Source: a virus
IMG/VR virus record: IMGVR_UViG_3300045988_012220
Coordinates: 38,228 to 102,227 of that record
Strand: one strand, 5' to 3'
Length of the DNA: 64,000 bases
Shown: one piece after another, positions 26,101 through 61,138 of the stretch
How the letters are laid out: the number at the start of each line of letters is the position of its first letter
How positions within the stretch are numbered: the stretch's first letter is position 1
Translations under genes and position numbers: made by a program
Notes under the pieces: generated by a model
What the model saw: only the letters and a program-made list of their open reading frames with translations
The model's database searches: none
What the model was told of the DNA's origin: nothing

Positions 26101-27810
26101 GCTTTGTTATCAATGAAAAATGATTGCGCAAATATGTTGTTCAATAGTATTATTGGAGCATAGTCTTATTATAAAAACGTTGATAATAATCTATAGGAAT
26201 TCAATTCTTTTTCAAGTTACTACAAGGTCAACATTAATAGTATTCCAGGAACTGTGTTGTGCAATATAAGAAAAACAGTAACTCCATATGATGGGTGTAC
26301 AGAGAAATCAATAACTGCTAGTACATATAGATCTGATGGTCAGTTCTTTACAAAAGAAAATGAATGGAATGCAGTATTCGATGGAGATACTTATATATCT
26401 GTACTTGATTACACATCAATGCATAAAGCTACTTGCAACTTCTTGAAAGGAAAGGATGATAGGGCTAGTAGAGATTATAGTGATTATAGGTCACCTTCAA
26501 TGATGCTTGGATATGCCATACCGGTAGAATCTAATATAAATTGCAGATTTGCATATGGCTACGAATTCTCAAAGAACTCTACAAATGAAGGGGCATCTAT
26601 GATTTAGATTGAGCCTGCTAATGTAAACAATATGTATACTCAAACTGAGCCAGAATACTTGTTTAACACAACATATGCTGCAGAAAACAATAGTAGAATT
26701 CACGCTGCTTTTGATACTACAAATATAGAAGACTTTAATAAGAATGTTGACTATATGTGTAGATATTCTATGTTAAAAGAAGACAATGAGCACATTGATA
26801 GCTGGACTAAGTTTTAGAGCTCAAACTATCTTGATGTAGATAGTAAGTATGGCAAAATAACTGGTTTGAGAACATATAAACAATGGCTTGTATTCTGGTA
26901 GCAGATGGCTACAGGCTTATTGTCTGTCAATGAAAGAGCTATAACAGATAGCACTAATGGAACACAGCTTATTCTTGGTACTGGTGGAGTGCTTAGTAGA
27001 TATGATTATCTAGATCAAACAACTGGTATGCATAATGACGAGTTATGTGATACTTAGTCTAGTTCTACATTGTACTGGTTTGATCACCATAATCAAGAGG
27101 TTAGATCATTTGATGGTTAGGGTGTATATCCTTTAAGTAAGGCGTTATAGGCTTAGAATATATTGTACAAGTATTAGAATAAAGATTCTAATCCATCGTT
27201 ATTCTTTGATAATAGAAACAACGAAGTTATATGCAAAGTAATTGGAGACGACTCATTTGTATATAATGAAGCTGCAAAAGCATTCCCTTCAATCTACACA
27301 ATACCGTTTGATGGTTCTATACAGTTTAGCAATAAAACATTATTGGTAAAGAATATAAACGGAGATATAAAGATTGCATAGTGGGATGCAGATAATAAAT
27401 ATACAACATCTTGGGAAGAGGAAATATTGCCAACATATATCAAGTATGTTGTAAATAGTGTTCCTACAGCGACTAAAGTGTTTGATAATCAAGAGATAAT
27501 TACACCTCAAGACGAGTTCTAGTATATCGATATAAAGGACGATAAGAAAGATAGAGATTCTTATTTCGGCTTATCTAAACAATATAAATGGTCTACAGAC
27601 TCTGGTATGAAGGCAGAGGATGACTTACATGGAAAGATAACTATAAGAGAGCATAATTATAGATATGCTATTCCTAGAGATACTAGAGCAAATGCTTATG
27701 GTTCAAGAATGAGAGGTAAATATCTTGTGTGCGAAATGTAGGATAATAAGCCAAATACTAATGTTGCTATACAGTATATATTAACTAAATTTAGAGCATC
27801 ATGGATTTAA
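23149..27810 (+). CDS. large tail / tail-hub-type structural protein (1,553 aa)
   Basis: ATG 23149, TAA 27808-27810. Every codon was written out: 33 TAGs, no TAA/TGA. It joins track ORFs 23149-23334, 24718-24939, 25495-25779, 26254-26607 and 26632-26817, all in one frame. Confidence 0.8.
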
Positions 27811-30597: not shown

Positions 30598-32049
30598 ATG
30601 ATAGGAATGTATGACGAACCAGTAGCGGTCCCTATTATAGACCTACTGGACAGCAATATGATGTCGTAGTACATCAGTGCTGCAAGAGAACAATATAACT
30701 AGGCTATACAGGACCAAAAAGAGTTTGCTAAGGAATTTGGTGATCTGTATAGTCCTAGTCCAGAGCTTAATAAAGCATATTACGATTAGACTAAGGGTAG
30801 GGTAAACAAAGCTATTGACTATATGTATTAGAATGGTATAGACCCTCTTAGATCAGCAGAAGGTAGAGCATATATAGCTAAGATTATTAGAGAAACTCCT
30901 TATGATAAGATCTCTAAATGGAAAACAGATGCTGATAATATGAAGACATTCTAGAAGGCTGCAGCATCAATGGTAGCAGAAGGAAAACTTACCCAAGATT
31001 AGCTTAATTGGCAAATGTAGAAATATGGGTTGGATTATGATAAATTTGACCCATATACATAGAATTGGAACACTTTGGCACCTACAAAAATGGACACTCT
31101 CGAAGATCTTACAAAGATTCCATACAGCGTACTTAAACCAAGTAATCTTACATAGAAGCAAGTTGAATCTATGGGTTACAAGTATGATCCAAAGAATGAT
31201 TATACAGGTATCACAGACTAGATGATTATTGATACAGCTGGCAAAGCTATTCCGTCTGTTATGTCTACGGCTGCTGGTGAATATTATTATGATAAAGCTA
31301 AACAGTAGTTACAGTAGGCTGGTGTAACTAATCCTACAGATGACTAGATTAAGCAGCAATTATAGGGTACTGTGGCACAACTTTGGGAAGGTAAGAAGAA
31401 TATAGCATGGGATCCTAACAAGTATTCATTGCTCAACTATTAGAATATACTTGCTGATTAGCTTGATGCTAAGAAGTCTGCTAGAGACCTCGCTAGTCAA
31501 AAAGCACTTTTGGATTACAAGTATGCTGATGACGTTAGAAGATCTGTTAATAATATTGGCAGTAGTTCTTCTGGAAGTAATTATAAAACTATATTTGACA
31601 CTGCTAGAGAATAGCCTTATACTCCAGTATCAACATCAATAGATGATCTTAGAGCTAATGGTGTAACGCTTGCAGACCCAGATGCTCGATGGGATGAATA
31701 CACGTAGTCTCAGTCGTAGGGTGATAGCAATAATAAATAGACACAATCTACCAAATAGCAGATTATTACTGTTAATGATGGACAATATGTAGCTAGATCT
31801 GGAGCATTTAGAAAATTAAATGAAGGCAGGTCTAATAGAGTAAACTATGGACTTTATAAGAAACCTGGAAGAAAGATTACAGCAACGGTAACATCTGGTC
31901 CTACATATAACAAAAAGCTTGGTAAGTATTACATTAAAGCTAATGTTGTATCAGTAAACAATAATCAATCAGCTGGAACAGTTGGACAAACAATCTGGGT
32001 TGAAGTTAAACCTGGATATATAGGAAAAGCACCTAACAAAGCAAATTAA
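30598..32049 (+). CDS. tail/ejection-module protein, unknown function (483 aa)
   Basis: ATG 30598, TAA 32047-32049. Every codon was written out: 21 TAGs, no TAA/TGA. The ORF track reports nothing in this frame because no TAG-free stretch of 60 aa or more exists. Confidence 0.75.
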
Positions 32050-32056
32050 TTAAATT

Positions 32057-35000
32057 ATGGCAAATTACAATTTACTTAAGTCCCCAGCAGAGGACTATTT
32101 TAGAGGGTAGGCTAAAAAATTTGGTACAACATTACCAAATCAACGCAAATCCGTTCCTAATAAAAGGACTTAGGCTAATGTACCAAGTTATATATCAAGA
32201 CAATCTGGTTCAAGATTAGAATCTGATATAATGCCGCATGGAGATTGGTATAAGCCTAGTCAAAAATCTATTCAGAGATAGAAAAACGCTATAGCTGAAT
32301 ATGACTGGAATAAACATATTGACAGCTTATACAAGCAGCAAGAAAGATCAAATAGGCAAAAGATCGATGCTCAAGACGACTCGGAAGGCTTACTTTCTGA
32401 CACAGAGAAAGAGAAGCAATCTAAACTCGAAGAAGATGCCCTTCATCAGGAATATTTAAAGAGTCCGCTGCATGCAATATTCGGTTCTATGGGTTCTCCT
32501 TTGACCGGATCTTATGATGGTCTTGGAGAAACATTATTTAATATTGGATAGAGAGCTGGTCTGTTCTCTGCTTAGTCTAGCGATCTTGGAATAGAAAGCA
32601 CAAAGGGTAAGATTGCTCTCGCGCAAACAGACCAAGCTAAAGCAGATGCGTGGGCTAAACGAGAGCGATTAAAAAGAGATTTAAAATCAAAAGAAGATCA
32701 GTGGAACTATCTTAAAGCTAATCCTAAAGCTTAGGTTAAAGGTGATGCGTGGAAGGATACATATCTTCTCGGATAGGATCTTCTTAAGACTTACGATTAG
32801 TTATAGGATAAAGACCTTAATGAATTAGCAGACGCGTACAAAGCTACATGGATGAAAGATCACACATCTATGTGGGAAGGGTTCTAGGCTGCTGTAACAA
32901 AGATGTTCGCTTCTACAAATGATACATTTGATGGTACTGGTAGATCCAAAGAACAAATGGCTAAAGATTGGCTTGATAATTATAATAAATAGTTGTCTGA
33001 TAGATTCGAGAAAGCTCATCAAGGAATGAGTTTGGATCAAAAAGAGATTGAAGCTAATCAATTTAAAGCTAAACGCGAACAGGATCTCAAGGATTATAAA
33101 GAAACTCTTGATGACCAAATGCGTAGAGCTTCTAAATGGAAGAAGTTCTGGAACGTCAGCAAACATGCTGAGAATCTTGCAAACATACATGCTAATGATG
33201 ACCTTTTAACACCAGATTATTGGTTATGGAATTTACCGCAGCAAATGGGTTCTTCTTGGTCTTCAGACACAGGTAATATTGGTAATCTTATCACAACGGC
33301 TGGTACTATTGGTTCTTTTGCTTTAGGCGCAGCTGGACATCCAGAAGCTGGTTTTGCTTTGTACAACGCCGCTAATGCAGCAGCACTCCCATTTAACTTA
33401 CAAGGTGCATAGGATGAGAACTACGCTGAAATTGCTCAGCGTTGGACATAGAACTACCAATAGAATCTCAACAAATACGAAGTATAGGAAGCGTTCGGTA
33501 AAGCTTAGGGTATTTCTGCATCATATAAAGACTTGCAGAAGCAATCTGTAAAGTTCGCGATATAGAATGGTATGTCTAAAGATGATGCTGAAAAGAGGTA
33601 TGATTTAAAAACGCAGCAAGGTAAAGAAAAAGTTCTCGGAGACTATTTGATGGGCATTACTAAGAGTAACGACCAACGTTTGTCTAAAGCTAAGCTTGGC
33701 ACCACAAAGGGTCTTGAGCAGTAGTTTATGATAGATAATGCTAGAACCATGGGTACTGAAGTTGTGCAAAATGTTATATCATACGTACAGCCTGGTAATA
33801 GTCTTTCTAATCTATATCGACAAGCTGTATATAAACTTCCAACAACCAAACTTGGTGCCAAACTTGCTACAAGTAAAGCTGGTAGACTTGTAATAGGAAC
33901 AGACTACGCTCTTGCTGGTCTTAACGGAGCTGTTGAAAGTAAATTTGCACAGGCTGGGCAGTATATTAATTCTCTTACAAGTACAGCTGGCAAAACTGGA
34001 GCGAAGATTGGTTCTACAACAATGGATATTCTTGGTGGTGGTGTTCTTGGACACTATGTTGGTGCTGGAGTTGGTGCTGCCGCAGGAGAAGTTGCTAGAG
34101 GAGTAAAGGGGCTTGCAAAAGAAATTATGCCTCAGGCTCTTAAAGATGCTGGCGTAATGGCTGGAGAGGCTATATCCAAGAAAGCTGAAGCCTTAGCAAC
34201 AATGGTTGGCGCTAAAACATTAAAAAGGAAATTGTTAAAGGCGGCAGTTAAAAACCCTAACACAATGACTGTTTTAAAGATGCTCAAAAAATACGGAATT
34301 AATACTGTTAGAAGCGGATTGATAGACAGAGCATCTGAGGGTAATGAAGAAATTGTACAGCAGTTGAATGCTAATGCTGCTGAAGAATTTGCTAAGACAT
34401 ATGGATACGGATCAGCCGATTTGCTTAGTCTTGCGTTCCAGGATATGGCTTATAGTAAAGAGGTGTCAGACTTCTATAAAGGTATGTTCGGCCTTGGTGA
34501 GTCTGAGCTTTACAACGATATGGAGATGTTGTCGAACTGGCGAGGCGGTTTTGCTATGGGTGGTATGCACCCTATGGTAGCCATGAACATTTATCACGCT
34601 GTTAACGACATTAAGAATACTGTACAAGTAAAAGACGCCATAATGCATAGTGCACTTCTTGATAGAGAACAAGGAAAGATGAATAGAGCTAGTAATGCTG
34701 TCATCTCAGACCAGATCTCTAAGGGAAGATATAATTAGTTAACTACAGAAATACAGTAGCTCAGAGAAGCTGATTTGAAGCGAGAGAGACCGCGTTTCGG
34801 TGAACAATATTGGAATGACTTACAGTCTAATGTGGAACGTATTTCTGCTCTCGTAAACAATAAATAGATTGAGCAACAATATCGCCTTAAAGGTATCAAC
34901 AAAGGCACAGAGCAATACAATGTAGCTATAGCTGATAGAGCTAATATCGAGCAATAGTTAGCTGCCAATAGAAAAGCTCAGTAGGAAGCTGAAGTTAGGC

Positions 35001-38000
35001 TTCAGTAGATTTACGGACAGTAGGGTTATCAAAACCAGGTAGAATAGGCTGTAAATAGGCAGGAATAGTCAAGAGATCCTATGCTGACTGCTATAAATGC
35101 AGCTACAGCAAAGACTAAGGCTATTGAGTCTTACGTTAACAGAAAGGTAGAAGAGTATAAGAAGTCTCTTGATACAGCAGCTTTACCTCAAGAAGAAGTA
35201 GAAAAATCAGTAGCAAAATATAAAGAGTCAATTAAAGATGAGGCTAACGAATATGGTGAAAGATTTGTAGAAAATTCTTAGAAGGAAGAGCACACTAGGC
35301 ACGTAAATAACTTCCAGAGAAATTCTGAAGCTCACAATAGAATGAAAGCATTGCTTACACTTAAGGCTAAGATGAACTCTATTGATGATATATTTAAGTT
35401 TGCTCACGATAAGCTTGGATTAAAGACCGTTAGACCTGATGCTAAATTGCTGTCAGCAAATATAGATAAACAAATTTCTCGTGCAAAGCAAAGTTTGGCT
35501 AAAGCTTATAAGAATTTTGACGAGAAGTCTACCGATGAACAGACATTGCAATTCTTGAACAACTTTAGCGAATCTATTGGATTTAATGATAATGAGATCC
35601 AGGAGCTCGAACAAGCTAAGGCCATGTATACAGCTAATGAATCATTACTTAACTCTACATTATCAATTCATACAGAAGGTGTTACACGTGATGATAATGG
35701 TAATCTTGAGTATAATCCAGATGAGCTTAGATATCAGAGAAAGCAGGCTGAGTTAAAGTAGAAGCTTGGTGATAAATACAAGCCAGAAGAGCATACTAGA
35801 GCTGCAGCTAAAGATGGATCAAAGAGTAAGCTTAATGAACGTATCACAAAGATTATTGATGCAAATAAACAGAATGAAAATATCGACTGGATGTTGTCTG
35901 ATATATATTCTGGAGACGCTGTAACAAAGCTTACAGAGGATTACTAGAATGATATGCTTAAAGCTGCCGAGGAAGATATAAAAGACATTAATACTCAAGC
36001 CAAATAGGCTGTAGACCCAACAGAAACTTAGCAAAAGCATGTAGCTACTACAGAGGAATTACAGAAACATGCTGAAGAATATAAGCGTCGTAGAGATAAA
36101 GCTAGAGAGCATTATAGAAAGAAGCGTAAGGCTAGAAGGAATAAAGCAAGGGTATCATTCTTACTTGGTTTTGATGAACTCGCAATGCAGTCATTCGATG
36201 GGCTTATGGAAAACGCAAAGGTTGGCTTCTATAAGTTTGAGTAGCTCTACAATGATATAAAAACTATTCTTCAAGAAGAGACTGGATAGGATGGTGGGCC
36301 TTCGGTATTAGCTTTAGCAAAGGCGATGTATATTCGTCATTATCTTACATCTACACGTAAAGAAAAGGAGAATATGAATACTCCTATAGATGTACAATCT
36401 TATGGAGCACAGGTTGCCACACATGCTTCTCAAGATACATCGTTCGATGGATATAGAAAGGCTTTAAAGCGTCAATAGAATAGAGCTATTATACATTGTT
36501 TTCACACAACAATAGCATACGACGATAATGGCGCTCTACATGTATTTGAAAATATAGACGAGATAGACAGACTTGAATATCAGTCTCATTATCCAGAAAT
36601 TGAGGAAAATGTAAATATCTCTGATAAATAGTAGATACTTGGATATCTTGCAGATAATACAGATAGGTTTGGGAATCAAGATTATTCTGATATAATTGAT
36701 ACAATATTTTCTCAGCCAAACAAAGAAGAATTATTATAGGGATTTGCGCATTATTTGGCATCAATAGATACAACTTATTTTAATTCTCAATCTATAAGAG
36801 ATGGAGAAACTATTAGAGAGCTTGCACAGGCTATAATGTTAGGAAATGACGACAGTTTTGCCGATGCACTGTTAGATAATCCGAATGGATTAGAAGATGC
36901 TAAGCAGTACGTTAAATCTGTTAGAGACAGAATGTTAAACGGCGGTCAGTATAGAGTGCTTGATACAGATATTCCTATTTATGGGTATGATGACAAAGGC
37001 AGAGCTATACAATCATAGGCAGATATTGTCCTTGTTGATAATGATGGATAGCTGCTTGTTGTAGATGTCAGGTCTTCATTTAAACCAGATCTAAAAACCA
37101 GAATGCTTGGTAATTAGAAGTCCAACGGTCGAGCTAAAGAAACAATGATCCAGCAGGAATAGAGATAGCTTCAAAGGTTAAATTAGGTTCTTTATGATAC
37201 ATTTGGCTCTAATATTGAAGGTACATACGTAATGCCATTCTATTACGATAGAACATCACGCGGAATTGCAGCAGAGCCTGTATTTAAAGTAGAAATGCTT
37301 GATTTTAACAAGCCTGTAACACCTTATTACAATAAGTCTAATGAAGATATATCTAATGAAGTTGTTAAACCTTTGTAGGATAAAGTAAATGAATTAAAGG
37401 AAGATTATCAGTAGTTGCTTGATAGTATCACAGAAGCTGGCGACAAGAAATACTCAGATTCTCATGCATTGCTTGATACATACAATATCTTTAAAGAAGG
37501 GTCAAATAAGGATGAATTATTGCTTCAGATGAGAGATCTTCACTCAGCTATAGAATCTATCCAGAGCTTAAAAGAAGACGCTTAGATGCGCTTAAATTAG
37601 CTCCTGTAGCCTAAATAGCACGAGAACACTGTGCCAGAATTCTACCCAGAAGATGCTTTTGATCACGTTATTGTAGATGAGCAATATTAGGCTGGTCTTG
37701 ATACAGTTCACGAAATCTGTAAGAAGCTTGATACGCTATTAAGTTCTATCACGGATCTTAACATTACGACAGCAGACGAACGAGCTCAAGTTAATGAACT
37801 CATTTACTCAATATATGATGCCTAGACAGCACTTGATCAATTCTACGGCAGCGATCAGTTTAAAGTTGGTGACACTCTTCCGGAGCAAAAACTTATAGCA
37901 GCTGCTATTAACAAGCTCGTAAACAATAGGATGATGTACGGAGATGCTGCAAATAAGGCTTTACAAATGTGGCAGTCTCAATTTGCATCCAATATTGGCA

Positions 38001-41000
38001 ATCCTAGCTTTACTTATTTCAACAAGATTAAGTCATTTCTTGCTACATTTGATGGCGAGTTTATGAATAGCCTTGTTGGTAATAAGAGCTTATAGAGATT
38101 CTGGAGTACAGTTATAAATGACTAGCTTAAGTTCTTGGCTGATAATGCAAAGAATGTACAGAAGACTAACACAGCTCTTGATAATGCGCTTACTGATACT
38201 ATTTATGATGCAGAAGACTTTATTAGAGAATATAATCAGAGATTCCCTGTGGATCCAAACATTGATGATATACTTGATGCAAACAGCGCGTAGAGTATCA
38301 ACATGATTGACGATCAATGGAGAGAACTGTATAGTGATACTACTAAGCACTTCCCTGCATTCAGAGCTAAACTTGATCCACATTACTTCTCTATAGCACT
38401 TGATCCGCATTTGATTTATCCAGACGCTTCTGGGAAATCTGGTAATGCTGAGCTTATATGGAGAAATAATGAAGTATAGCTTAAGCTTACAGACTCTAAG
38501 GGAAGAACGATCTTTATGACATTTGATCAAGGTAATGATGCTGGTCCTAGAGGTGTCGATCCAGTATATTTTGCTAGAAAGAAAGCTGCAGATTCTGTGT
38601 TTGTATAGAAAGTTAAGTATATGCTCGACTTTATGAAAACGCATCCAGGATACCATATAAGCATGAAATTAAGCCGTTCTAAGGGCTCAATTAAGAACGG
38701 TGGAGAATTATAGCCTGTAAGTAAATTCTTATTCGCAGGAACGCTTAATTAGCATGATTTGTACAATATTACATGCGATGCTGGTAATAGAATAGGTTTC
38801 CTTAAGGCTACGCAAAACGTAAACACCGGTGACGTAACGAAGATGGTATATGGTGGTCCAGAGCTGTCAACTTTAATTAGCGGATTTGATCTTGAATATG
38901 TAAAACGTACAGCTATAACACAATCTGGTAATATCGTATACTTCTACGATACTGGTCAGACTGAGAAGACTGTAGATAATAGATGCATTGGCACACCATT
39001 AATATAGCCTAAGTTTACAGCTGGCCAAGGCGGTTAGGCTAATAAGATTGCAGACCTTATATGGTATAAGTGTTATCAAGGCTTAAATGAGTATCAAGGT
39101 TATTCTATAGATGATTTACTTAAGTAGGTTCTTTATATTAAGGCTGATAATAAAGTATTAAATGAGAAATATAACTCAATAGAAGGTCTTGTTACATTAG
39201 ATCCAGCTAACAAGAGAGTTATTATAGGCAATGTCATTTACCCTACATAGAACCCTAGTGTAGACTACGCTAATATCTATAACGCGCTGTGTAATATGTA
39301 TATGACAAAAGACGCCGCATTTGTTCAGTAGAACATGCAGCAGTATATATAGTCATCACATAATAGTGTATTAGCTAAGCTTAACGCACAATATGCATCA
39401 GACCCTAATCTTGATAAAGTGGAACTTCCAAATGGTCTTACGTTTACAAGAGAAGACTTTACTCACGACGGTAAGGGTACAACTGGTCTTGGTTATATGT
39501 TGCGCAACGGTTATTTAATGTCGTACGCAGCTAAGTTGGAGCCACCTACAGTATATGTAGACAACGTAGAGCTTGTGCAAGATCATCCGGACGAAAGTGC
39601 TCAGCAAGTGTCTAAAACAGTTGCTAAACAAGATGTTCAATAGCAACAAAAGTAGGCTGAAGACACATTTATGGCTTTGTTCTACGAACAAGATTTAAGT
39701 GAGTTTTATGGACAGAAAGAAAAACCTTCGTTTGCTAACGCTGTTGATGAGTGGGTTAGAAAAACCACTGGCATTACTCCACAATGGGTTGAAAACGAGA
39801 GGTTATCTGACGTGGCCTACAAAAAGAATAGTGCAGTACTCGCTAAATGTACAGACGCTGTTATTCAAATATCTAATTCTGTTCCTTACACTATTGGATT
39901 CCACGAAGGATTCCACAGAGCGTTAGAACTACTTGTAGAGCCATCTATTAGAGAATAGATGTATTCAGCATACAGAAAAGCTCACCCAGAAGCTGCCACA
40001 GAAAGAGACGTGGCTGAAGGTTTAGCTGACTTATTTGTTGATTATATGCTTGGCACAAAAGATGCTAACGCCATAAAGAAACAAGGATGGATTAAGAGAA
40101 ATGTAAAGAAAGTAGCTAACAGATTAAGCATCTTATGGCATTATAGAAACAATGCTAAAACAGTTCTTACTTTGTTCAATGATATCAAGTCTGGGAAATA
40201 TGCAGATAAATAGGTAAGTAAAGAACAGTAGGATAGGTTTAAAAAGCTGTTTGGCGAAGACTTGCATTATGAAATAAATGGACGCAAATTCGATCATATA
40301 GGATCAGCTGCCGAGAAAGAGCATATGGCTAGAGCTCTTGGATATATTATAGTAAAGTCAGCTAAAGATGCTACGGATATATATGATGCTGTACATGACT
40401 CTTCTGAACTTCCTATCAAATATATACCAATGAGAGTTATAAATAACCTTATTGGCGAGCCTGGTTCTGTTAAGCCTGTTCTGAATGGATAGTATATGTC
40501 TGTGAATTCGGTTACTCCTACACAGCAAGCGTTTAGAGAAGTGTTTTACGAAGAGTTAAACGATAAAGGTAACATTGTATTCCCTAATTTCTCAGCTATA
40601 TCAAAAGAGGTATAGAAGTATCTTACCGAAATAATGGATGCTTATGACGGCAAATATCAGCATGATGACGATTCTGAGACAAGTGACCAGGAAGAGAATG
40701 ATTATGGAAAGTCTATCGAAAGATACGATAAATCTGCATTCGAGTTCAATAAACTTGATTCTGTAAGTAAACCAGTAAAAATGTTCTTTGCCACAATACC
40801 TTACTACAAGTTTAATGATAATGGCAAACTTACACTTGATATATCTAAGAATATATATGGTATTCCTACATTTATGCCTATTAAGTAGGTATTTAATGTA
40901 ATTGTTAGCAAATTACATGATGTTAAAACACCTTTAGACTTATTAAATAGACTACAAGAGCTGTCTACGTAGAATCCTATGTACATGGCGATCTATTAGA

Positions 41001-44000
41001 AGTATAATGATCTATACAATTCTATATATACATTTAACGACGATGATTAGCTTGAAAAGATAGACTTCGATAAAGAGGCGTTTATGATACAGATATTTAC
41101 AGCTATCAAGGGTCACGAGCATAACTTTATTATTGGTAGGTCTATACGCGATAAGAATGGAGGCGTAGAAGTTAAAATATCTGATGCAAACTTCGATAGA
41201 GACGCAAGAATGTACCCTAAGCTTTGGAATTCATTCTTATCTTCTGGCCAATCTGGCTTATTATAGAGATCAGTTGGGTAGAATGGACAATTACTTCTTT
41301 CTACAAAGTATAACACAAATAATACTTAGGTAGATATGCCTACAACTGTAGCAAGAAATGCATTTAGATTTATATCTCAATTTTTCTCTGATTTACAGTC
41401 GTAGATACTGAATGATTCTACTAGCGAATTTAAGATAAACGGAAGAATTAGAAGCGCAGCGTCTAATAGTGATATCGAAGTACTTAAGGATGATATATGT
41501 AAAGAATTTAATATGCTTGGCATAAACTTTACTAAAGAAATGCTCGACCATATGCTGTCTACAAAGTATAATGGTGTTGGTAGAGAGGCTCTTAAGAAAT
41601 GGATTACATCAACAGGCGTGTCTAACATTAACAGTTTTATTGATGCCGTAGGTAAAGTTGTGCAAACTAATGGTTATACAACATAGAAGGCTATAGACTA
41701 GATATTTAAGACTGGTTTTGTTAGCGAATTAGGTAACTGGGCTGGAGCTTACATGAAGATTACTACAGATAAGATGTCTAATGGTATGGATGGTACTAAG
41801 CTGTATAATGAGTCACAGAACAATAGCATTAGCAATACTACAGAGAATCTTAATAGCCACGATAAGAATAATATGGTAGTAAGGACTATTTTGTAGTCTA
41901 GCTACAATATCATGAACAACAATGGTGTAAATATGGGTTCTATTGTAGCAAAGCAATTACAGAACGGAGAAGATTTCAATATTAGTATTTATACTCCTAT
42001 TGGCTTTAAGTCTGATAATCGCGGTGACAATGGCTCAAAATATAGTAATCTTGCAGAAGCCGAAGATTATATCAATAAGTTCGCAATGCTTTAGAACGGA
42101 TACTGTATATTCCCAACACTTGCCGACAAAGGTACATATATGGTTCTTGGTGGTATAAATATCCCAGGAATGGAGTTTGGGCAGTCAGATAATGGTGTTT
42201 ATACTGTATCTGGTGCTCCGAAGATGGTATTCTTAGATAGTACGCACTATTACTTACAGCCTAATCAATCTGTATTAAACTAGTTTATTGACTATGCTTA
42301 TACAGAGCGTGAAGCTATACTTGATTGTAGAGAACAACTTGGCTTACCTGTAGATAATCCTAAAGGTTTACCAGTACTTAATGATGAAGATAAGATAATG
42401 AATTATCACATCGGTAAGAAAGGGAAATAGCCTGGCGGTATTCAGTTTAAATCACTTACAACACTTAGAGTGTATGAAGATGGATAGATTAAACGTTACG
42501 AAATAAGCAAGATGTCTCCTGATGAATAGCTTAAAACTCTTAATGAGCAATTCTTCGACAGATCTAGAGAAGAGCAAGAATAGATAATGTCATTAACTCT
42601 TTAGGAGCAATATGAGAACGAAGTAGATAAAGCTGTTAGTCTTGGCATTGTTTCAAAGGATGAAAAGCTTGGTTATCTTGGGCTTAATAACATTAACCTC
42701 AATCAGAGCCAAATAGACGCCGTAGAACGCACTTTGTACGCTCAGATGTATAAGGATCTCACAGATAAAGGAATAACACCTAATACGCAAAATTTGCAGC
42801 GTACAGCACATAGTATGGCTATTACTGCTATATTACAAGATGCAACGAATAGAGCTATTATTTCATCTGAGGAAAGTTTGAGATTATATATCGGTAATCC
42901 TGGGTTCTTTAAGAATGTAGAAGATATTCAGAAACGTATTGGCGGTCTTGTATCTACTGGTGATGACAACGTTACATCTTTGTCAAATTACGACGGATCA
43001 GATGGAGAGCTTTATAGATGTGCTGAAATATCAGATTATGAAGTAGCTTCAAATGCTGATATTATGAGCGAACTTCAAGAGAAGATGCGCGATGGTGAGC
43101 TTAGAGAAATTTATGGAAACCGTTACGGATTTAAAGGTGTTGACGATTTAGATATCGGTGCAGTAAGAGCTAGACTTGTAGATGACTTTGGTGAAGATGC
43201 TGTTAAGAAAATAGAAACAAGAGCTAATAACTTCTATGAAGCCTATACGTGCGGCATAAATGTAGCTGATGGTGCATCTTATATTACAGCTGATATGTGT
43301 AAAAGAATGCTTAGAGCTAGAGGTGCATTAACAAACGACGTAGCTAAGGCTATTAACATTCTAGAAAGCTCTAATAAATACTCTTGGATGGACCAGAAAG
43401 ATGCATATAAACTTATATATGATAAAGTAAATCTTGTAACAACCAAGTATACCGCTTATGGATTTAGGGACCATACAACTAATGGGAAGAAGGTTTCTAA
43501 CTTAGCTGTACCATACTACAATAAGTTTGCATTGTTCCCTATATTCGATTGTATAGCTACTGGTAAGCTTAAGAATGTGTATGATAAGATGAAGGAAAGT
43601 AAGGTTGATAATCTTCTTATGACGTCTGCCGTAAAGGTTGGTCTACAAGGTCATTCTGAGTTCGATGGTAATACTATTAGCAAGCCGCTAAATGTTTATA
43701 CACAGAGACTTTCTGCGCTCCGCAGGCAGCTTAATACAGACCCAGAGGAAGGTGATGTTGTAGCAGCTGGTACACAGATGATTAAGGTTTGCTTGTCTAG
43801 TTTGCGACTCGATAGAATGTATGGCGATATGACTGGAGAATAGCTTAGAGATAAGCTTATGGGCTCTATCAATAAACTTTCTAAACTTGGTGTAGATAAG
43901 TTTAAAGACAGATTCTATTCTAATGGTATTATAGACCAAAAGAAGCTTAGCGAATATCTTATAGAACAACTTGGTACAAGAAATGCTAATAAGAATCTTA

Positions 44001-44500
44001 TAGACGCTCTTACGTATAATCCATAGACATGCTCAATGAATGCGCCTATTGCGTCTACTGCTGATGCAAGTTGGATGGAGTCTATGCTTATATCTGCAGC
44101 TAATAAAGATATTATTGACATCATGACTCCTGGTAGCTCATTTATTCAGAGATCAGTCTTTGCTATAGAAGGTAAAAATGGCGAAGGTAATATATAGGGA
44201 CAGGAGATCTATAATGGTAAGAGATTATAGATGATAAATAAAGAGGGCTCTATGGATGCAGTAATATCTATAGATTACTTCCAGGATATTCTTCCGAAAA
44301 ACTTGTCTTACAACGAGGCTAGACAATGGCTCTTGGATCATAATATAATTGGAGAAAGTGCTACATCTAATACGATCGGTTATCGTATTCCTACACAGGC
44401 TCAGTCATCTATACATGCTTTACGTTTTGTAGATGTTGTACCTGCTGTCAAATCCACGGTAATACTTCCAACTGAGTTTACCAAGATCACTGGTTCGGAT
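32057..44500 (+). CDS. giant virion-RNA-polymerase-type protein, exon 1 (4,148 codons)
   Basis: ATG 32057. All track ORFs from 32993 to 44231 (16 of them) share frame 2. A line-by-line scan found no in-frame TAA/TGA, only TAG. It contains HEGFH (39902-39916). The exon ends …EFTKITGSD at 44500, where the intron-like sequence begins. Confidence 0.75.
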
Positions 44501-44761
44501 AAACTATATCAATGTTCAAACCAGTATAATATAAAAAACTCCTTTAATTGCTGGGAACTCCATATCAAGTGGACAATCAGCAGCCAAGCCCATTATGGGA
44601 AGGTTCAACGACTATCGAAATCATAGTATAAGAGAAACACTTATACGAAGAAGAGAGTAGAGTACACGAAAGTGGAAATGGGGAGCTTTTAGTATATGGT
44701 AATAGTATACTAATTGAAGATATAGTCTGATCTCATTGGTAACAATGAGTTAACAAAAATG
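44501..44761 (+). ncRNA. group I self-splicing intron (261 nt, no ORF) in the giant RNAP-type gene
   Basis: It shares gttcaacgactatc and gaagatatagtctgatctcat plus a ctcat...atgag hairpin with the capsid-gene intron, and ends in aaaaatg. In-frame TAA 44711-44713 blocks read-through. The exons join in frame as …ITGSD|FDIDHLY…. Confidence 0.7.
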
Positions 44762-47700
44762 TTTGATATCGACCATCTTTATTTAGCACGTTATAACGTT
44801 AATGAGAGTGGTGGTTATGAATTTGATCCAGAAAGTGCAGAAGGATTACAGAATAGTATTATCGAAAGCATTCTTACAGTACTTAAGGATAAAAAGTCAC
44901 TTAACATCTTGTATAAGTCTATCGATAATGATACTGAGCTTGTAACAAGCATAGCTGATGAAATCCCAGAACAGGGTAATACGAAGAGTGTAGCATACAA
45001 CTTTGGTACATTACATGAATAGGTTACTCGTAAAAATGACTACATTACAGGTAAGACTGGTATCGGTCCATTTGCGTTGAATGTAACAAACCATATTCTT
45101 ACAACATTATATGGCGTTAAATTTAAAGAGTCTAGCTTTACACAAATAACAGGTATTACTGGTTTTGATTAGATTCTTGACGAAGATAATAATCAGATTT
45201 CATCTTGGTTATCAGCATTTATTAATGCCCACGTAGATATTGTGAAAGATCCATATATATCTAAGCTTAATGTAAACGGATTTACGTACAATATGATTAA
45301 CTTGCTTGCTAGAAATGGCAAGGGTAAACAAGGTCTTTATTTCTTGTGTTAGCCTATAATTAGAGAGATGGCTAAAGCTGATATAGATACTAAGTCTCAG
45401 TTTACTAGAGATCCTAAGGTATTTAGATCTGCTTTCGAAATGAGGGATAAGAGATTAGCTGAAATATTCCCTAGCGTTACCGGTAAGACAATAGACGATT
45501 AGTATATTAAAGATGCTACAGAACTAAATAAATCTAAAGGCGAACCTGCTAGAAGGGCTGAGATAGTGAACTCTGTACTCAACAATATGGATATGCTTTA
45601 GAAGATAGCTAAGAATCCGGATTTAGTCTATGCTTAGACAGAAGAGGGAGAAAAAGCTAGAGCTTTCTAGGTTAATTGCTACATAGCATGGAAGTGCCTT
45701 GAAAAGTATTCTAATGCATTAAATAGTTTGGTACAGTACACTAAGATTGACACTCGTAAACAGGGTAAGAATTTCCTTGAAATGCAAGCTTATCTTAGAG
45801 GTTATGAGAATCTTACAAACCCAGAAACTGATTAGCTGTTTGATATGGATTCTATCAACAATCTTATACATGGTACTTGGATTGAGCAGAAAACAAGAGA
45901 CGCTATTCAAGAACCCATGAGAGTTATGGCTGGACAATCATTCTAGGGTACACCTTAGTTTATGGAGTAGCTTATCAATTTATCCGACGACTTTAAGTAT
46001 AAAACAAACGACAGAGAGTCTGATTTACTTAGAAATGCTAAGACTATGAAGAAAATATCATAGGCTGCTAGTAGTTAGATTAAGGCTAGATATGCTGTTA
46101 GATTAGCTAAATCTTTAGGTATTGATATTAAAGGTTTGTTCGACGGGAATGCTACAATATTTGACAGACTTAATTCTATATAGGCTTGCATACAGAGAGA
46201 TGCATATGGTTTAGGTAGATTAAAGGATAATTATCTATTATCGCATCTCGCTCCATATATTTAGGATTAGGATGTTTTCGTAAATGGAAAACTTACCAAT
46301 AAGCCTAAATTTATAAGTGTTATTAATAGTATGGATGAAAGTAAAATGTCTGCTGATATGTTTATAGAGTCTTGGGAAGAACTTCTCAATGACCAATAGG
46401 CTAATGTAAGAAGATTTGCAAATGATCTTATATTGTATGCAATGCTTACATCTGGTGACACAAAAGGCTTTAATAAAATAGCCAAATACATTCCTATGAG
46501 TTGGCTTGAAGTTAGACACGATGAGAGCACCGTACCATTCTCTGATTATATTAGGGAACAACTTGAGGCTCCGGAAATTGATCACGATCTTATAGCTTAG
46601 AACAACTATATGGATAGCGATTTGGTGAGCAGGGCTACATTCAAAGATTACTATTATGCTTTCAATGCTTAGTACTCTCCTGCTGTAATAATTAGTAAGG
46701 ATTCTCACGAACACGACGCTTTGTATATATCAGTACGAAATGATGGAGCGGTATATAGTGATCCAACGTCGTACACATTGTATAAAAAGGTTGGAGAAGC
46801 TATGATTAATGGATCCAAACGTGCTGTATATGCGTTATTACCTAAGAGGGGATGGTCCGATAGAGATGGTCTTAATATATACGAAGCAGGTGATATTAAT
46901 CTTAGTGTAAATGGCATTCCTATGAGTCAAGAAGTCATTGAAAGTCAGCTTGATAAACTTATGACTTACTTGAGCCAGATGAAGCCAAATATTACTGACG
47001 AGTAGCGCAATAACTGGATGTCGTGGTTTAATTAGATGTATTACAATGCTAATTCAGAATATCCTACAATATCACAAGCTGTAGAGCAGCAAAGCACACA
47101 AAGTGTTAGTAATATTAATCTTGATGGCAAAGGCCCTTCTGGATAGACTGTGTACATAAGCAAATAGTTATTCTATAAAGATTAGCCTCAACAACACCCA
47201 AATGTACAGTACGTGTTCACAGATAATGCTTAGTCTTATGCTAAGGCGCAAGGTTTACCTATGCAAGGTTTTGCTAATTATAACCCAGTATTAAATGTAA
47301 GTTCTGGCGCCACTGGTACAAATCAAGCTTGCATTAGAACTGGCAGCGACGGAAAGATTACACCTAACGCGTTTGGTCTTGTAGTAAAAGTTAATCAGCA
47401 AGATGCTTCTGGCAGATGGCTTGCTAAAGATGGTTGTTTCTAGGATAATCAAGGCGACATAATGGCGTTTAAGTCGTGGGTTAACCATATGCTTGCAAGA
47501 ATAGATAGAAATAAGCCAATAGTATTCCCATCATAGATAGCTCTTGGTAAAGCAGCTTTGCCTAGAGAGGCTGCAGAATGGCTTAGTTTACAATTGCTGT
47601 CAAGATTTAACATAAAATCAACAGTTTAGGAAAACACTAAAACTGGTTATACTGGCTATGGATTGTCTATAGAAGGCGTTGTGGATGATAATTATGCTAA

Positions 47701-47812
47701 CACACTAATTAAAGAAGAGTAGTAGAAGTAGGCTTTAGCATAGATTAATCTTACTAAGGAAGATATAGAAGAAGCTGAAAGAATTAGAAAACATTGCAAA
47801 GGAGGTAAATAA
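44762..47812 (+). CDS. giant virion-RNA-polymerase-type protein, exon 2 (1,016 codons plus TAA)
   Basis: It continues frame 2 through track ORFs 44759-45022, 46721-47005 and 47261-47443 to TAA 47810-47812. Only TAG interrupts the frame (checked). The spliced product is 5,164 aa with about 126 TAG codons. Confidence 0.75.
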
Positions 47813-50800
47813 TGAAAGAAATATGTCCTAATTTACATAATAAACAAGTAGCCAAAGAGTTTGGTGAATTAAAAGATTTGTTCGGTGAGGATACTGCGTA
47901 TTTACTCTGGAGCAAAAATAATGGATATAGTATAGATAAGGCACCAAATGGCGCCGACTCTATATTATTTGGAGAGTTGCTGAACGTTACCAATGGAGAT
48001 AGAATATAGGCTCTTATATTAAAAGCCAAAGTTTATTCAAACGAATTCCTTAACTGGTTTGGTGACTGGACATCTGAAGATAAAGAAAACGTATCTAAAG
48101 TTGTAGATAAGAATGGAGAGCCGTAGGTTACATATCACACAGTAAGCCCCGACCACTATTCTAATTTTAAGAAGTTTGACACAAATATCGAGGGGTTTAA
48201 AACAGCTATATATCATACAGATAGTATAGAGATGTCTATATCATATAATAAATATAAAGCAGAGAATTACGAAGAAATCAAAGACTATGATATAAGTACA
48301 TATAATACATATGTAGAAACAGCCAACAAGGAAATATTTGAAGCATTAAACGATATTAATAAAGATGATTTTTTAGACGAACGTAATTATGATTGGTTTC
48401 TAAAAAAGAAAGAAGAATTTTTATACTATATCAAAAACAAAGAACTAGGTAAAGCTGACGATATTCTTAAATCTTTTCGTGGTTTGCTAAAACAAAATAA
48501 AGAAACATTTGTTCTTATTGGCGACCCATTTAGTGACAAAGAACCTGATTTTGATACTTTTTATCAAACGAAGCTAGATGAATTAGAGCGGAGTTTTTAT
48601 ACTTTATATGATGCTGAGAAGAATTATAATCCTTATTATATAGAAAGAAAACTACAAACCCAAACATTCGATTATACTAAAATTGATTTTCTTAATATAA
48701 AGAATCCAAAAATAATTGATGCTAAAGGAAATAATTGGAACCACATTCCTGTTGGAAATAACAAGATTTTATCAACTAGAGATTTAGAGAAGTCGTATAT
48801 TACAACAAATTATTCTGATGCAGAAATAGCCGATTCTAGAGCAGAACTTTATATTAGATACAAAAATAAAGATTTCTCTAAATTCAATCTATATGGTATT
48901 ACTATTAGTATAAATAAAAACGGAGATGCTAATTTTTACACAAGAGACAATGTTATTACTATAAAAGGGTATTTGGACTTAGATACAAATCAGATAAAGT
49001 AGGAATATTAGAAAAACAACATATATTTTTATAATCAGGATTTTCATCGCGATGGCGTTATTATTAATAATGTTACTGATTACGGATCTCCAGTTGGGGA
49101 GTTATTACCACATACGGTATACGAATGCATTGATAATTCTCAAGTGAAATCCGCATTTAACAATGGACAGTTTGCTAATCCAGATGACATGTATGCATCT
49201 TCTCAAGGAGAATCCAATATGGGCGCATCCTCTAGATTATCTAATATTCCTAGTAAAGGGGATATATCTATATTGTAGCAGTATTTAAAGTCTCATAAAA
49301 GCGGTGTATCTAGTACAGCTTTAAAGCTTGTAATGACTGCTGTAAATAGATACTTTAATGATAAATAGACTGGAGTTACATACGAAATAGTAGATAACCT
49401 TCCTGGCGGAGAAGCAGCACATTATGATAGAGTTAACAAGGTTATTCGTATAAATAAGAATGCAAACTTTAGAAATGAAAGCAAATCTACTGCACCTGAA
49501 GTATAGACTATTGTTCACGAAATGCTTCATGCTGTTACAGAGTATGCGATTAGTAACGATTCTAGGATAAGGAAATCATTTACAGACCTCTACTAGAAAA
49601 CAAAGAAAGTTCTTGGGAAAGATGCGTAGGACTACGGTTTGAATGATGTATATGAATTTGTAGCAGAACTTAGCAATGCGCAATTTGTAGAAAAACTAAA
49701 GTCTATACAATATAATCGTAAACAAACGCTGTTTGAAAAGATTAAACAGACTATAAAGAAAATATATTCTTAGATATTTACAAGCTATAAAGACTTTATT
49801 GGTTCAGATAATGTGTACGAAGCTGCTGTTAACGATTTGTTTACAGTTATGTCTCACAACGAATAGAAGGAAGACAATATAACTGATAAAGAAGCTAAAG
49901 ACAGATTAGCTTCAATACAAGCTTCTGAAGACAAGGTTAATCAGATACATCATAGAATAACTGAGCTTTTCCAAGGGTTGTATAAGGACTATAAAAAATA
50001 GCTTAATAAGGGTGCCAATAGACAGCGTAGAGAAGACTAGGTGTGGTCTACAATATAGGAACTTAAGTCACAGGAAAAGAAAGAGTCTTCAAGAATAGCT
50101 ATACAATCTGCTTTAAAAACTATTGGTGTGTTCGCAAGAGATCCAATTAATAATACTATTTTGCAGGCTCGTAGAGATACTATTTTAGGCTTCTTGTAGG
50201 AATGCTAGAAGAATAATTTCGATAGCCTCACAGCTGAATAGATACACGATATGAAGTCTAATATTATAGACTTCTACAACGATCTTGTCAAAACATTGTC
50301 TGATAACTAGATGGATCTGGATGCTAGAGATCAAGCTGACGTCGATACGCTTAATGCCACTGTAAGACAGATTAATCAATTATGGAAAGATGCTGCACAA
50401 ATTGTAGCAGACAAAATAGTCGATGAAAATGTAGATAAATACATCAATGAATCTGAAGAAGAGAAGAATAAGATAAAGACTGTAGCTAAAGACTGGCTTC
50501 ATAAGAATGATATGTATGGAGACGAATCTAAACTTACATTATTCTTTAATTACTCTAGATAGAACAGTCCTATTATTCGCCAAGCGTTCTAGATGATATA
50601 GGATGCTGATCAGTAGACTAGAAAAGAGTCTCTACCGGTTATGTAGTAGATAGCAAAAGCTTTTGATAAAGCTAATTCCATCATAGATGATCTTACTCCA
50701 GGAAACTGGTAGACGATGTTGATGGAAAGGTATACAGACGGTCCTAAGAAAGGAGAGTTTACAGGCTTGTTTAGATCAGCTGTTAATAGAGGTTAGTTTA

Positions 50801-53800
50801 AACAAGACTAGGAAAATTTTAAAGAGAAGCTTAATAATGAATGGCAAGACAAATATGGTTATTTCTATTACAAAGATCCTATTACTGGAGAGACTTTAAG
50901 AAGTGATACAGAGTCATCAGTAGAAGAAGAGCAATGGATCGGAGATCAAGAACCAAACTATGTAACATATCAAAGAAGATACGAGGAATGGCTGTGTGAT
51001 CATGCACATAGAAGATATTCTAAGACATACTTTATGGAGCGCCTTAGTAAACCTTACGACCCAAAGACTAGAACTGGTCACGGTCTGTCTCCAAGAACGC
51101 TTTCTAGACAGCAATATATACAAGATCAACTTAACTATTTATTATAGAAATGTTCAGATAAGCAGACTGGTTTATCTTACCCAGAAAAGCTTAATCCGCA
51201 CGATTATCAGAAACTGTAGATGTGGAAGGATGCTTTACAAGATTTGGGTAATCCATTTGATCAAGAAGGCAACCTCAAAGAAGGCGATGAGTTACAAACA
51301 GCCCTTGAGATACAGTCTTGGAATAACTGGTTAGCTAAACAAACAGACTATTCTACAGATTTTGAGGAGTTTGATAAAGAGTATCAGAATATATTGAATT
51401 AGATTAAAGCAGGAGAAAAAACTGCATAGGACCTATATAAGTTTATTGATGCTAATTCAGAATATGGTATAAATCCAGAATACCTCGAATATATCTTTGA
51501 TAAAAACAAATCCGCTAAAGAAAGTCTATAGAGAATGTTCTAGAACTCAATGAAGAAGCTTATTAAAACAAAGAATGGCTTTGTTAAAGATTTCAGTAAT
51601 GTAATCTTCTCTGAACAGCCTGATGGTACGGTAAAAGTTCCAGATATGTGGTTCTATTCAAGATCTGCCGATATCAAAAATAATGAAGAGAACAATGCTA
51701 CTGGTATAGACCCAGAAGAATTTAGAGACGCTTTTGATATTAGAGAAGTTCCTTATACAGATCCTTCTGGAATGCAATTAGCTAAAGATGGTGTAACAAA
51801 ATTTGATCCACGTAATAATCCAAATGGCGTAGAGCCTATGTCGTGGTTTGAATATATACTTAAACAGTACACGGATGCAGCTCTTGATGGCAGAATGCCT
51901 AGATATGTATCGCTCGATGGTAAAATAGCGATAGACTTCTCTACACTTGGTGGCAATCGGTAGTCGGTAGAGAGATGGATAGCTGAGAATATTCTTATGT
52001 ATACAAAAACATGGGAAGGTAAGGATGGTTCTATGAAATCTAAGCAAGTTCCACTTACAATATTCTCTCAGATAATTCCTAGACACGCTACATTTGGAAA
52101 TAACTAGCCTACATCTAGATATATTCCTAAAGGTCGTTTTACAACAAAGAAAGGATCTTTTGGCTCTTCTATATACGACGACAAGTTCTACGATGGTGAT
52201 AGAAGTGGTTTGTAGCCAGACTTTGATAAGTATGGAGATAAGGATTTTGTTAAGTTTATATAGAAGGGTGACGCTAGAGCCTAGTATTACAATCTTCTTG
52301 TACAAACTATGGAATAGCAATGGGATAAGCTTGGACTTGATCCATCGTATAATAGATTTAAACTTCCGCAGATGGAGGGAACTTCTGATATGAAGAGATC
52401 TAGAGCTTTTGGTAGCCCTAAAAAGTTCATTAAGAATAAACTTCAAAACGCAACTGGTGCTACGTCTGATGATACAAATATGAGAGACGAAGGTGATTTT
52501 GTACAGCGTAATGGTAAGTGGGTTCTTAAGACTGCGCCAACACGCTTTATAAACGAAATGGAAGACCCTTCAATGATTAGCTCAGATTTAGCTTACACTG
52601 TTGGCATGTTTGTAAATATGGCTAACAACTTTGTAAATAAGTCTAAAGTACAAGCTAAGCTTGAGACATTGGGATATAACTTGTCTGATGAAACAAGAGA
52701 TTCTGAACATCAAGGAACTGGTACTAGATAGCAAGAACGATATGCCAAGATGTTAAAACAATTGTTTTATGAGTCTAGAGAAACGAACGATAATCCTGGA
52801 GAAAAGCCTTCGAAAAAAGCTATCGCAGCAGCAAAACTTGTAAATAAGACTAGGGGTGCTTCAGCTTATCTTATGCTTGCAGCTAACATACCTTCAATGT
52901 TTGTTGGTGTATGGGACTCTTTCACACAGATGCCAGCACAAGCTGCTAGAAATGATCAATTTGGTTTTAGAGACCTTATAAAAGCATACCTTTATACAGG
53001 ATTTGATCTTATGAAGGCTTTAGCTAATATTGGTAACCCTATAGCTAATTGTAAAGCTGTAGCTATGATGTAGAAAGATGGTCTCGTTAGAACAAATGAT
53101 GAGACATTTAAAGACATTTATCGCAATAGAATTACAAAGGCTTTAAAGCAATCAGCTACAGGAGGTTATACAATGGGCGATTATATGATGAACATGCTCG
53201 CACAAAGAGCTACATATAATGCCAAGAAATACTATCCAGGAAACACTGTTGTTAAAGAAGGTTTTTATACAAAGGCTGAGTTCGATAGATTAATGGTAAA
53301 TAGTGGTCTTACATAGAAAGAGATTAATAGGGAATGGAAAGATAACCATGGAGAATCTATGTGGAATGCTTACTATTTCGATCATGGTATAGCAAAGATT
53401 AAACCATCGTATACTAATGCCTAGATGTAGGACAGTAAGTTATCTGCTACCATACAGCAAACTATGGCATTGCTTAATGGTAACTCGCCAAAGAATGATC
53501 AATCAGCTGTTAGTAACAATGTCTTGCATAAATTCTTCTTCTTAATGCGTAACTTCTTTATACGTAGAGCAGAACATTGGTTTGCAGGATATACTTCAGA
53601 TAACGTTGTAAGAGAGATTGAATAGATAAAAGAAACTATGCAAAGAGGTGGTACAACAACCATTAAAACTAAAACTGTTCGTAAACCTCTAACAAATGAG
53701 TAGAAAGCACAGAGATGCATGTATGACTATAGTACTGGTGAAGCTAATCCAGCTGTATTAGTAAATCTTATGAGAGGAGCGCATACTCAGCTTAAATGGT

Positions 53801-56977: not shown

Positions 56978-56997
56978 ATTTACTGATATTATAATAC

Positions 56998-59030: not shown

Positions 59031-59041
59031 TTATAAATTAG

Positions 59042-61113: not shown

Positions 61114-61138
61114 GATACAATGATACTAAAAGTTTTAA

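Follow-up and report, generated by a model that had tools for sequence, protein, structure and literature searches.

The window analysed here comprises 64,000 nucleotides (nt) of a virus record in IMG/VR (IMGVR_UViG_3300045988_012220, positions 38,228 to 102,227). This report concerns a giant gene at positions 32057–47812 of its plus strand, whose product resembles a cargo protein and a virion RNA polymerase (RNAP) of crAss-like phages. Read with TAG as glutamine and with one intron removed, the interval is a single gene. Exon 1 (32057–44500, codons 1–4148) is open apart from TAG codons, and its last codon, GAT at 44498–44500, specifies the first aspartate of a DFDID motif. Between the exons lies a 261-nt interval (44501–44761), assigned below to a group I intron, which contains no open reading frame (ORF) and holds the sole internal TAA (44711). 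Exon 2 (44762–47812) starts with FDID and consists of codons 4149–5164 and the TAA at 47810–47812. The spliced gene has 15,495 nt and 5,164 sense codons, of which 126 are TAG, and the predicted mass of its product is 583 kDa. A first-pass annotation of the window had arrived at 5,164 codons, about 126 TAG and 15.5 kb after splicing, and the present computation reproduces these figures exactly.

Reading frame and the meaning of TAG

From the ATG at 32057 to the TAA at 47810–47812 the frame contains 129 TAG, no TGA and two TAA triplets (44711 and the terminal 47810), so the earlier statement that no TAA or TGA lies in frame outside the intron held on recount. The other two frames of the same 15.8-kb stretch hold 173 and 621 TAA and TGA triplets. 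Base composition predicts about 287 in 5,164 codons, and the probability of encountering none is approximately 1e-128. TAG, in contrast, is undepleted, with 129 in frame compared with 113 and 126 in the other frames and an expected 108. Since its frequency is not lowered in the frame, TAG acts as an ordinary sense codon. The borders of the gene are also as first described: the ATG is placed 8 nt past the TAA of the previous gene (32047–32049), and the terminal TAA and the next ATG (47812) have their last A in common (TAATG).

Under the standard code the region splits into pieces of at most 369 amino acids (aa), among which we count 18 plus-strand ORFs of at least 60 aa in the frame of the giant gene. 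The first-pass annotation had spoken of twenty ORFs in frame 2, a number taken from its own ORF track. With TAG as a sense codon, the coding capacity of the plus strand in long ORFs rises from 4,320 to 18,630 aa and the strand becomes a tight, overlapping operon that extends from position 1 to 54504. Because both genetic code 15 and removal of an ORF-less intron are needed, the gene is missed by standard pipelines.

Six giant proteins were aligned with MAFFT, and the residues found opposite TAG in well-aligned columns were enriched 6.2-fold over background for glutamine and ninefold for TAG itself. Among relatives 90–94% identical to the window, 25 of 26 substitutions involving TAG were to or from CAG or CAA. 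The TAG codons of the window correspond in two close IMG/VR relatives to TAG (40), CAG (9), CAA (5) and AAG (1), and those of the relatives correspond in the window to CAG (8) and CAA (3). These comparisons, which bear out the original proposal of one gene with TAG as a sense codon, indicate that TAG is read as glutamine in the plus-strand late operon. Recoding of TAG to glutamine in crAss-like phages has been validated by liquid chromatography–tandem mass spectrometry (PMC9523058). For half of the ribosomes to finish a message with 126 TAG codons, each would have to be decoded with about 99.5% efficiency, which points to full reassignment and not to leaky read-through; we infer that TAG reassignment would be complete during late infection.

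If TAG were instead a true stop, the locus would be a pseudogene in decay or a series of short ORFs; alternatively, inefficient read-through would give mostly truncated products. No tRNA of any kind, suppressor included, was detected in the window by ARAGORN or Rfam, and none with the anticodon CUA was seen in the loci of the relatives examined. The agent that decodes TAG is therefore not encoded within this 64 kb, which covers only part of a genome of about 100 kb. That a suppressor tRNA has been reported in only about 40% of TAG-recoded phage genomes (PMC10136315) can be counted in favour of a stop; as most recoded genomes do without one, it also follows that a phage suppressor tRNA is common but not strictly required. 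Set against a stop are the loss of TAA and TGA from the frame while TAG stays at chance frequency, protein homology that continues straight over the TAG codons, their exchange with CAG and CAA among close relatives, and the decoding efficiency that we infer for so many of them. We regard a stop as extremely improbable.

Use of TAG differs between the strands. The minus-strand genes at 54586–64000 (exonuclease, ATPase, primase and DNA polymerase) contain almost no TAG, whereas the plus-strand operon is full of in-frame TAG. The exons of the major capsid protein (MCP) gene and a few other plus-strand ORFs (11262–11984 and 13512–14642) are also without TAG.

A group I intron in the DFDID codons

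An Rfam scan of the window returned two full-length group I introns, at 9628–9849 and 44464–44749. The latter, which spans the internal TAA, matches RF00028 over model positions 1–253 with 87.1 bits (gathering score 50; E = 7.6e-21). We rejected the ends of this alignment as splice sites, since they would give a product of 5,159 aa in which the DFDID motif is destroyed, and placed the junction by comparison with cr124_1 (NC_055899.1). When the giant gene was searched against phage genomes (INPHARED) with megablast, no close relative was found and the only match was one of 122 nt at the end of exon 1, to cr124_1. This homologue is intronless and runs unbroken (...EEFTKITGSDFDIDKLF), reading ...LPEEFTKITGSDFDIDKLF at the junction. 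The uninterrupted reading fixes the junction at 44500|44762 and the length of the intron at 261 nt.

The base before the 5' splice site is U and the final intron base is G. In P1, exon GGUUCGGAU and intron GUUCAAACC (guide sequence at 44514–44522) form eight of nine pairs, the one at the cut being a U.G wobble, and the pairing is nine of nine in three relatives; in P10 (partner at 44508–44512) AUCAA forms five of five pairs with UUGAU of exon 2. The catalytic motif is broken after its first aspartate, and splicing would rejoin GSD|FDID. From these features we conclude that 44501–44761 is a group I intron, for which self-splicing is predicted. The Rfam match, the homologue comparison and the P1 and P10 pairings agree with the prior suggestion that an intron takes out the only internal TAA. 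GSDFDID is uninterrupted in cr124_1, cr130_1, cr272_1 and cr114_1 and in the six intronless homologues P0001–P0003 and P0005–P0007; P0004, which is 55% identical, ends in intron read-through.

The same interval might be read as the border of two adjacent unspliced genes, the first running from 32057 to the TAA that ends at 44713 and the second from an in-frame ATG at 44759, just ahead of FDID (MFDIDHLY...). RefSeq annotates cr131_1 (Cacepaovirus simiae; NC_055902.1) in this way, as gp50, gp49 and gp48. In that record gp50 ends with ...EEFTKITGSD and translated intron, gp49 is a 243-aa LAGLIDADG homing endonuclease and gp48 starts with M|FDIDHLY, and the locus carries an unannotated 911-nt group I intron at a GSD/FDID site identical to that of the window. 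The two differ in that the intron of the window has 261 nt and no ORF, and in that one spliced gene stands in the window where RefSeq has three genes. A reading as two genes is at odds with a full-length group I intron of 87 bits that has P1, P10, the U.G wobble and the terminal G at its exact borders, and with the unbroken GSDFDID of intronless homologues; without splicing the catalytic triad would be shared out between two proteins. The ATG at 44759 corresponds to the conserved 3' end of the intron, and the MCP intron likewise ends with ...AAATG. Two separate genes therefore seem to us very unlikely, and we retain the single spliced gene.

The introns of the window and cr131_1 are 93% identical over their first 113 nt and 79% identical over their last 47 nt, although the host proteins share only about 35% identity. 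When IMG/VR was scanned for exact matches to a 26-nt core, four contigs were returned, all of which have the intron at GGTTCGGAT|...ATG|TTTGATAT. The 261-nt ORF-less form occurs in one contig, with 93.7% identity to the window, and a form of 912 nt in another, with 90% identity; a third also has the 912-nt form and the fourth is cr131_1 itself. The intron core is alike in 201 phage records, including Twort, AR9/PBS1 and phiKZ-like phages. The group I introns of Twort, AR9/PBS1 (RNAP beta), SPO1-like and phiKZ-like phages, which resemble that of the window in core sequence, likewise lie in conserved catalytic-site sequence of an essential gene and have an optional homing endonuclease. The host gene in the window differs from theirs in encoding a crAss-type single-chain, presumably two-barrel RNAP and in having exons in code 15. 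As judged from these comparisons, the pattern is the usual one for a homing intron that targets a conserved active-site sequence and whose endonuclease is gained and lost.

The closest relatives (IMGVR_UViG_3300045988_007353, _039200 and _100073) come from one IMG sample and show 90–94% nt identity over the parts compared; the three vary in the presence of an endonuclease insert of about 650 nt in the RNAP intron. The other intron of the window (Rfam 9628–9849, 93 bits) splits the MCP gene (8612–10421). On the basis of phrog_11589 (positions 5–334 | 335–492) and the sequence, MCP exon 1 ends at 9637 and exon 2 begins at 9909, with an intron of 271 nt at approximately 9638–9908. The 3' end of this intron (...GTTAAACATAAATG|) resembles that of the RNAP intron.

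It is conceivable, but in our judgement unlikely, that the intron is more than a passenger. In such a scheme it would be homing actively on the RNAP active-site sequence across Suoliviridae, as could be suggested by a shared site at about 35% host-protein identity, a 93% identical 5' core and the presence or absence of LAGLIDADG between sequences 90–94% identical, and splicing could gate or time the appearance of active polymerase; unspliced RNA would yield a product of 4,218 aa without the full catalytic motif. Small ORF-less introns, which escape endonuclease-based intron searches, might also underlie part of the hitherto unexplained disruptions 'within the DxDxD motif' that have been described in RNAP genes of the Zeta group (PMC7886860). 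Independently of this, the 583-kDa chain might be packaged and ejected uncleaved, in which case few single polypeptides delivered by virions would be larger.

Composition of the encoded protein

The C-terminal part of the product, approximately 2,350 aa, contains a region of homology to virion RNAPs at 42176–45784 (aa 3374–4489, interrupted by the intron) that was detected by tblastn, blastp, profile and Foldseek searches and is the best-conserved part of the giant protein. A tblastn search with the C-terminal 2,765 aa against a 2.3-Gb database matched 104 phage records. The top matches were to Suoliviridae, namely cr130_1 (39% identity over 88% of the query), cr114_1, cr109_1, cr118_1 and cr124_1, followed by a crAss001-like 'putative RNA polymerase' (8e-12) and phi14:2 g066, the 'catalytic RNA polymerase subunit' (3e-9). 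In hmmsearch (Z = 1e5), a profile built from six Suoliviridae giants matched phi14:2 g066 (2,180 aa, E = 2.7e-42), PhiCrAssBcn1_13 of the crAss001 gp50 type (2,608 aa, E = 8.4e-34) and PhiCrAssBcn1_16 of the crAss001 gp47 type (2,341 aa, E = 6.2e-23). These matches support the earlier idea that what is joined here is encoded by separate genes in crAss-like phages that are better known.

The catalytic DFDID corresponds to aa 4148–4152 (44498–44500 and 44762–44773). In the spliced product TGSDFDIDH (aa 4145–4153) aligns with TGSDFDIDK of phi14:2 and SGSDFDVDK of crAss001-like proteins; the phi14:2 DFDID has been placed at 1361–1365 (bioRxiv 10.1101/2020.03.07.982082), and similarity to phi14:2 gp66 (PDB 6VR4) and crAss001 gp50 is significant on both sides of the motif. 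An AlphaFold2 (AF2) model of a 40%-identical homologue had a predicted local distance difference test score (pLDDT) of 54, with values below 50 in the catalytic part. Its sole significant Foldseek match in the PDB was 6vr4_A (E = 9.4e-11, 596 columns), the structure of the phi14:2 gp66 virion RNAP. We consider the C-terminal part to be a crAss-type virion RNAP (phi14:2 gp66/crAss001 gp50), as indicated by its homologues. In phi14:2 and crAss001 this polymerase is a separate protein of 2,180–2,608 aa, whereas in the window it forms the C-terminal 45% or so of a 5,164-aa chain; their genes use the standard code and have no intron, whereas that of the window is TAG-recoded and has an intron. The final 300 aa or so (46895–47809) vary between genera and belong to no recognisable family; for the 'DprA-like' label that relatives carry we found no support.

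The N-terminal part of approximately 2,800 aa (32057–40456) is of the gp47 type by its profile match to PhiCrAssBcn1_16 and by synteny, as it follows the muzzle and cargo genes. The match consists of two colinear stretches, a PD-(D/E)xK-like block and an HExxH region. The block (36764–37249, aa 1570–1731) is common to gp47-type proteins, ...QADIVLVD...LLVVDVRSS in the window aligning with ...EVDILSVD...KIYDVKTS in the crAss001-type gp47, but had no profile match to a known family in Pfam, PHROGs or NCBIfam scans. In place of the expected catalytic lysine there is an arginine in the window and a leucine or tyrosine in cr130_1, cr131_1 and cr272_1; with the lysine replaced, some members of the family may lack nuclease activity. 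The zincin-like motif region (39854–40066) contains HEGFH at aa 2616–2620 (39902–39916) and Glu2654 (40016–40018). His2616, Glu2617, His2620 and Glu2654 are invariant in six Suoliviridae giants, and HEGFH falls opposite HEAFH (aa 2157) in the alignment with the crAss001-type gp47. The HExxH region matched no Pfam or NCBIfam family, a profile of it found nothing among PDB sequences, and its AF2 model, with a pLDDT of 44, was not used for a fold search. HExxH and DFDID thus occur in the same product, as had been pointed out at the outset.

The order of the two stretches is the same in PhiCrAssBcn1_16, where the PD-(D/E)xK-like block is followed by a C-terminal HExxH, and the gene for the crAss001 gp47-type protein lies directly after the cargo genes gp45 and gp46. 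These similarities indicate that the N-terminal part is homologous to the crAss001 gp47-type cargo or 'RNAP-associated' protein. In crAss001, however, gp47 is a separate gene on the strand opposite the RNAP gene, whereas in the window the two are fused in frame. The first 1,400 aa or so show no detectable similarity to the crAss001 gp47 type and could not be linked by sequence and profile searches to any protein outside Oafivirinae. Between phi14:2 gp67 and the N-terminal half of the giant no similarity was detectable either, though gp67 matches the crAss001-type gp47. The N-terminal part also contains charged, coiled-coil-like stretches. We note two Gly/Ala-rich, weakly hydrophobic segments resembling glycine zippers (33278–33334 and 34028–34084, aa 408–426 and 658–676), which might insert into membranes during ejection.

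Relatives and the proposed role of the fused chain

Upstream of the giant gene the window contains a muzzle homologue (23143–27810, E = 2e-14) and ORFs of 309, 627 and 495 aa. Downstream is a 2,230-aa gene (47812–54504, plus strand, 50 TAG), followed by a strand switch to the exonuclease, ATPase, primase and DNA polymerase genes. The 2,230-aa product is an RNAP-associated protein of the phi14:2 gp65/crAss001 gp49 type; it has its own HExxH at aa 570, around which it matches phi14:2 gp65 (E = 2e-9). We rejected the identification of the HExxH inside the giant with the published Zincin-like protein, phi14:2 gp65, as gp65 corresponds to the 47812–54504 gene. The transcription block has two separate HExxH motifs, one in each of these genes. 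In crAss001-type genomes the order is muzzle gp44, gp45, gp46 and gp47, with gp50 and gp49 on the opposite strand; in phi14:2 the large genes g067, g066 and g065 are colinear but separate, and in both phages the polymerase gene is, as here, at the end of the late operon beside RNAP-associated genes. On this comparison the giant unites the gp47 type and the gp50/gp66 type in one frame, and the gp65/gp49-type gene is kept separate.

Matches that cover at least 80% of the query are all to Suoliviridae, and the N-terminal half matches Oafivirinae only. By best homologues and gene order, the window is assigned to a crAss-like phage of the delta group (Suoliviridae, near Oafivirinae). It shows TAG recoding and an intron in the MCP gene, both of which have been described for that group (PMC7886860). 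Single giant ORFs are present in cr130_1 (gp79, YP_010113266.1, 5,801 aa, labelled 'DprA-like DNA recombination-mediator'), cr272_1 (gp23, 6,386 aa) and cr114_1 (gp021, 4,272 aa). That of cr124_1 has 5,198 aa once the record is circularised and a 55-nt terminal duplication removed, and only half of it is annotated, as 'DNA helicase'. All four are colinear with the giant of the window over 3,700–4,800 residues at 27–35% identity, contain no TAA or TGA, are likewise recoded (37–100 TAG per gene) and carry the same HExxH...E and GSDFDID motifs. They also share its genome position, being preceded by the muzzle and cargo genes and followed by a gene of about 2,000 aa and the strand switch. The copy in the window differs in its intron, which none of the four has, and in its C-terminal 300 aa or so; the identity of 27–35% makes it at least a different genus. 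The nearest sequences are unannotated IMG/VR contigs with 90–94% nt identity. In RefSeq the relatives are mislabelled, cr124_1 (NC_055899.1) being cut by linearisation, cr130_1 (NC_055901.1) misnamed and cr131_1 (NC_055902.1) split into three coding sequences.

In our view it is very probable that the locus is one late gene, spliced and translated with TAG as glutamine, that encodes a fusion of a gp47-type cargo protein with a virion RNAP, packaged and ejected as its homologues are. The transcript would excise its 261-nt intron by self-splicing and so rejoin the catalytic aspartate codons (GSD|FDID), and translation through 126 TAG codons would give the 5,164-aa protein. This would be a covalent fusion of a gp47-type cargo and a two-barrel RNAP of the gp50/gp66 type, which are encoded by separate genes in crAss001 and phi14:2. 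By homology and from the literature, the fusion would be packaged in the capsid as cargo and ejected into a Bacteroidota host ahead of or with the DNA, where the polymerase would transcribe the early genes, that is, the standard-code genes on the other strand. Late expression, packaging, ejection and early transcription are attributed to this phage from its characterised relatives; the last three are known for phi14:2 and crAss001 only (bioRxiv 10.1101/2020.03.07.982082; PMC10172136).

Apart from the missing tRNA, several results weigh against this interpretation. The AlphaFold models of the homologues P0005 and P0012 are of low confidence (pLDDT 54 and 44), so that neither the two-barrel nor the zincin fold is seen directly. 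When the whole protein was scanned in pieces, no significant Pfam, PHROGs or NCBIfam family was found, and phmmer of the RNAP part against PDB sequences gave no match. With the family libraries silent, the RNAP assignment rests on the similarity to the crAss family seen with tblastn, profiles and Foldseek, and such silence is in keeping with how extremely divergent these proteins are reported to be (PMC7886860). The gene model for this phage is known from its sequence, and expression, splicing and the proteome are predictions.

A variant that is compatible with this interpretation, and differs from it in the last step alone, is that the single chain is a polyprotein, which would be cut into a gp47-like protein and an RNAP either ahead of packaging or in the course of it. 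Cleavage could be due to the HExxH...E motif of the giant itself (aa 2616–2654), which is invariant and located just upstream of the point where the halves join, or to the gp65-type zincin of the next gene. Each half is a virion protein in its own right in crAss001 and phi14:2 (PMC10172136), and Drobysheva et al. suggested that the fused chain 'is likely cleaved' (bioRxiv 10.1101/2020.03.07.982082). However, neither a cleavage site nor a linker can be seen, aa 2700–2900 showing no break in conservation or occupancy, and the HExxH region gave no match to a known zincin profile and a model with a pLDDT of 44. N4-like virion RNAPs of about 3,500 aa are described as single encapsidated proteins. 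We give cleavage a little less than an even chance.

Other giant virion RNAPs are comparable by analogy only. The P23-45 enzyme (5,002 aa, fused to the tape measure) and the N4-like enzyme (about 3,500 aa) are described as being delivered by the virion for transcription of the first phage genes. The P23-45 polymerase resembles that of the window in being fused to another virion protein, but its partner, the tape measure, appears to be unrelated. The N4 polymerase has a T7-like single-subunit fold.

The first-pass annotation overrated the novelty of the gene, since the fused ORF is already one coding sequence in RefSeq relatives and Drobysheva et al. (bioRxiv 10.1101/2020.03.07.982082) had written of a fusion into a 'huge polyprotein'. 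Also described for delta-group crAss-like phages were introns, TAG recoding and RNAP genes of 'up to ~6000 aa'. Yutin et al. (PMC7886860) reported that late genes are TAG-recoded, that core genes of the delta group contain group I introns and that the transcription block harbours a LAGLIDADG intron element, and crAss001 gp47, gp49 and gp50 have been found in virions by mass spectrometry (PMC10172136). Every element is thus already in the literature, and the gene in the window is a fairly divergent further example from which no new biological principle emerges. Modestly new are the exact borders of an ORF-less intron in the DFDID codons, its polymorphism, in near relatives, with an endonuclease-bearing form and an explicit map of homology to gp47 and gp50. 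The chief value of the gene lies in annotation, as the exact intron borders and the finding of gp47-type and gp50-type proteins in one chain across Suoliviridae provide a template for this abundant family of gut phages. As a natural fusion, it could also help to work out how the RNAP-associated cargo proteins of crAss-like phages assemble.

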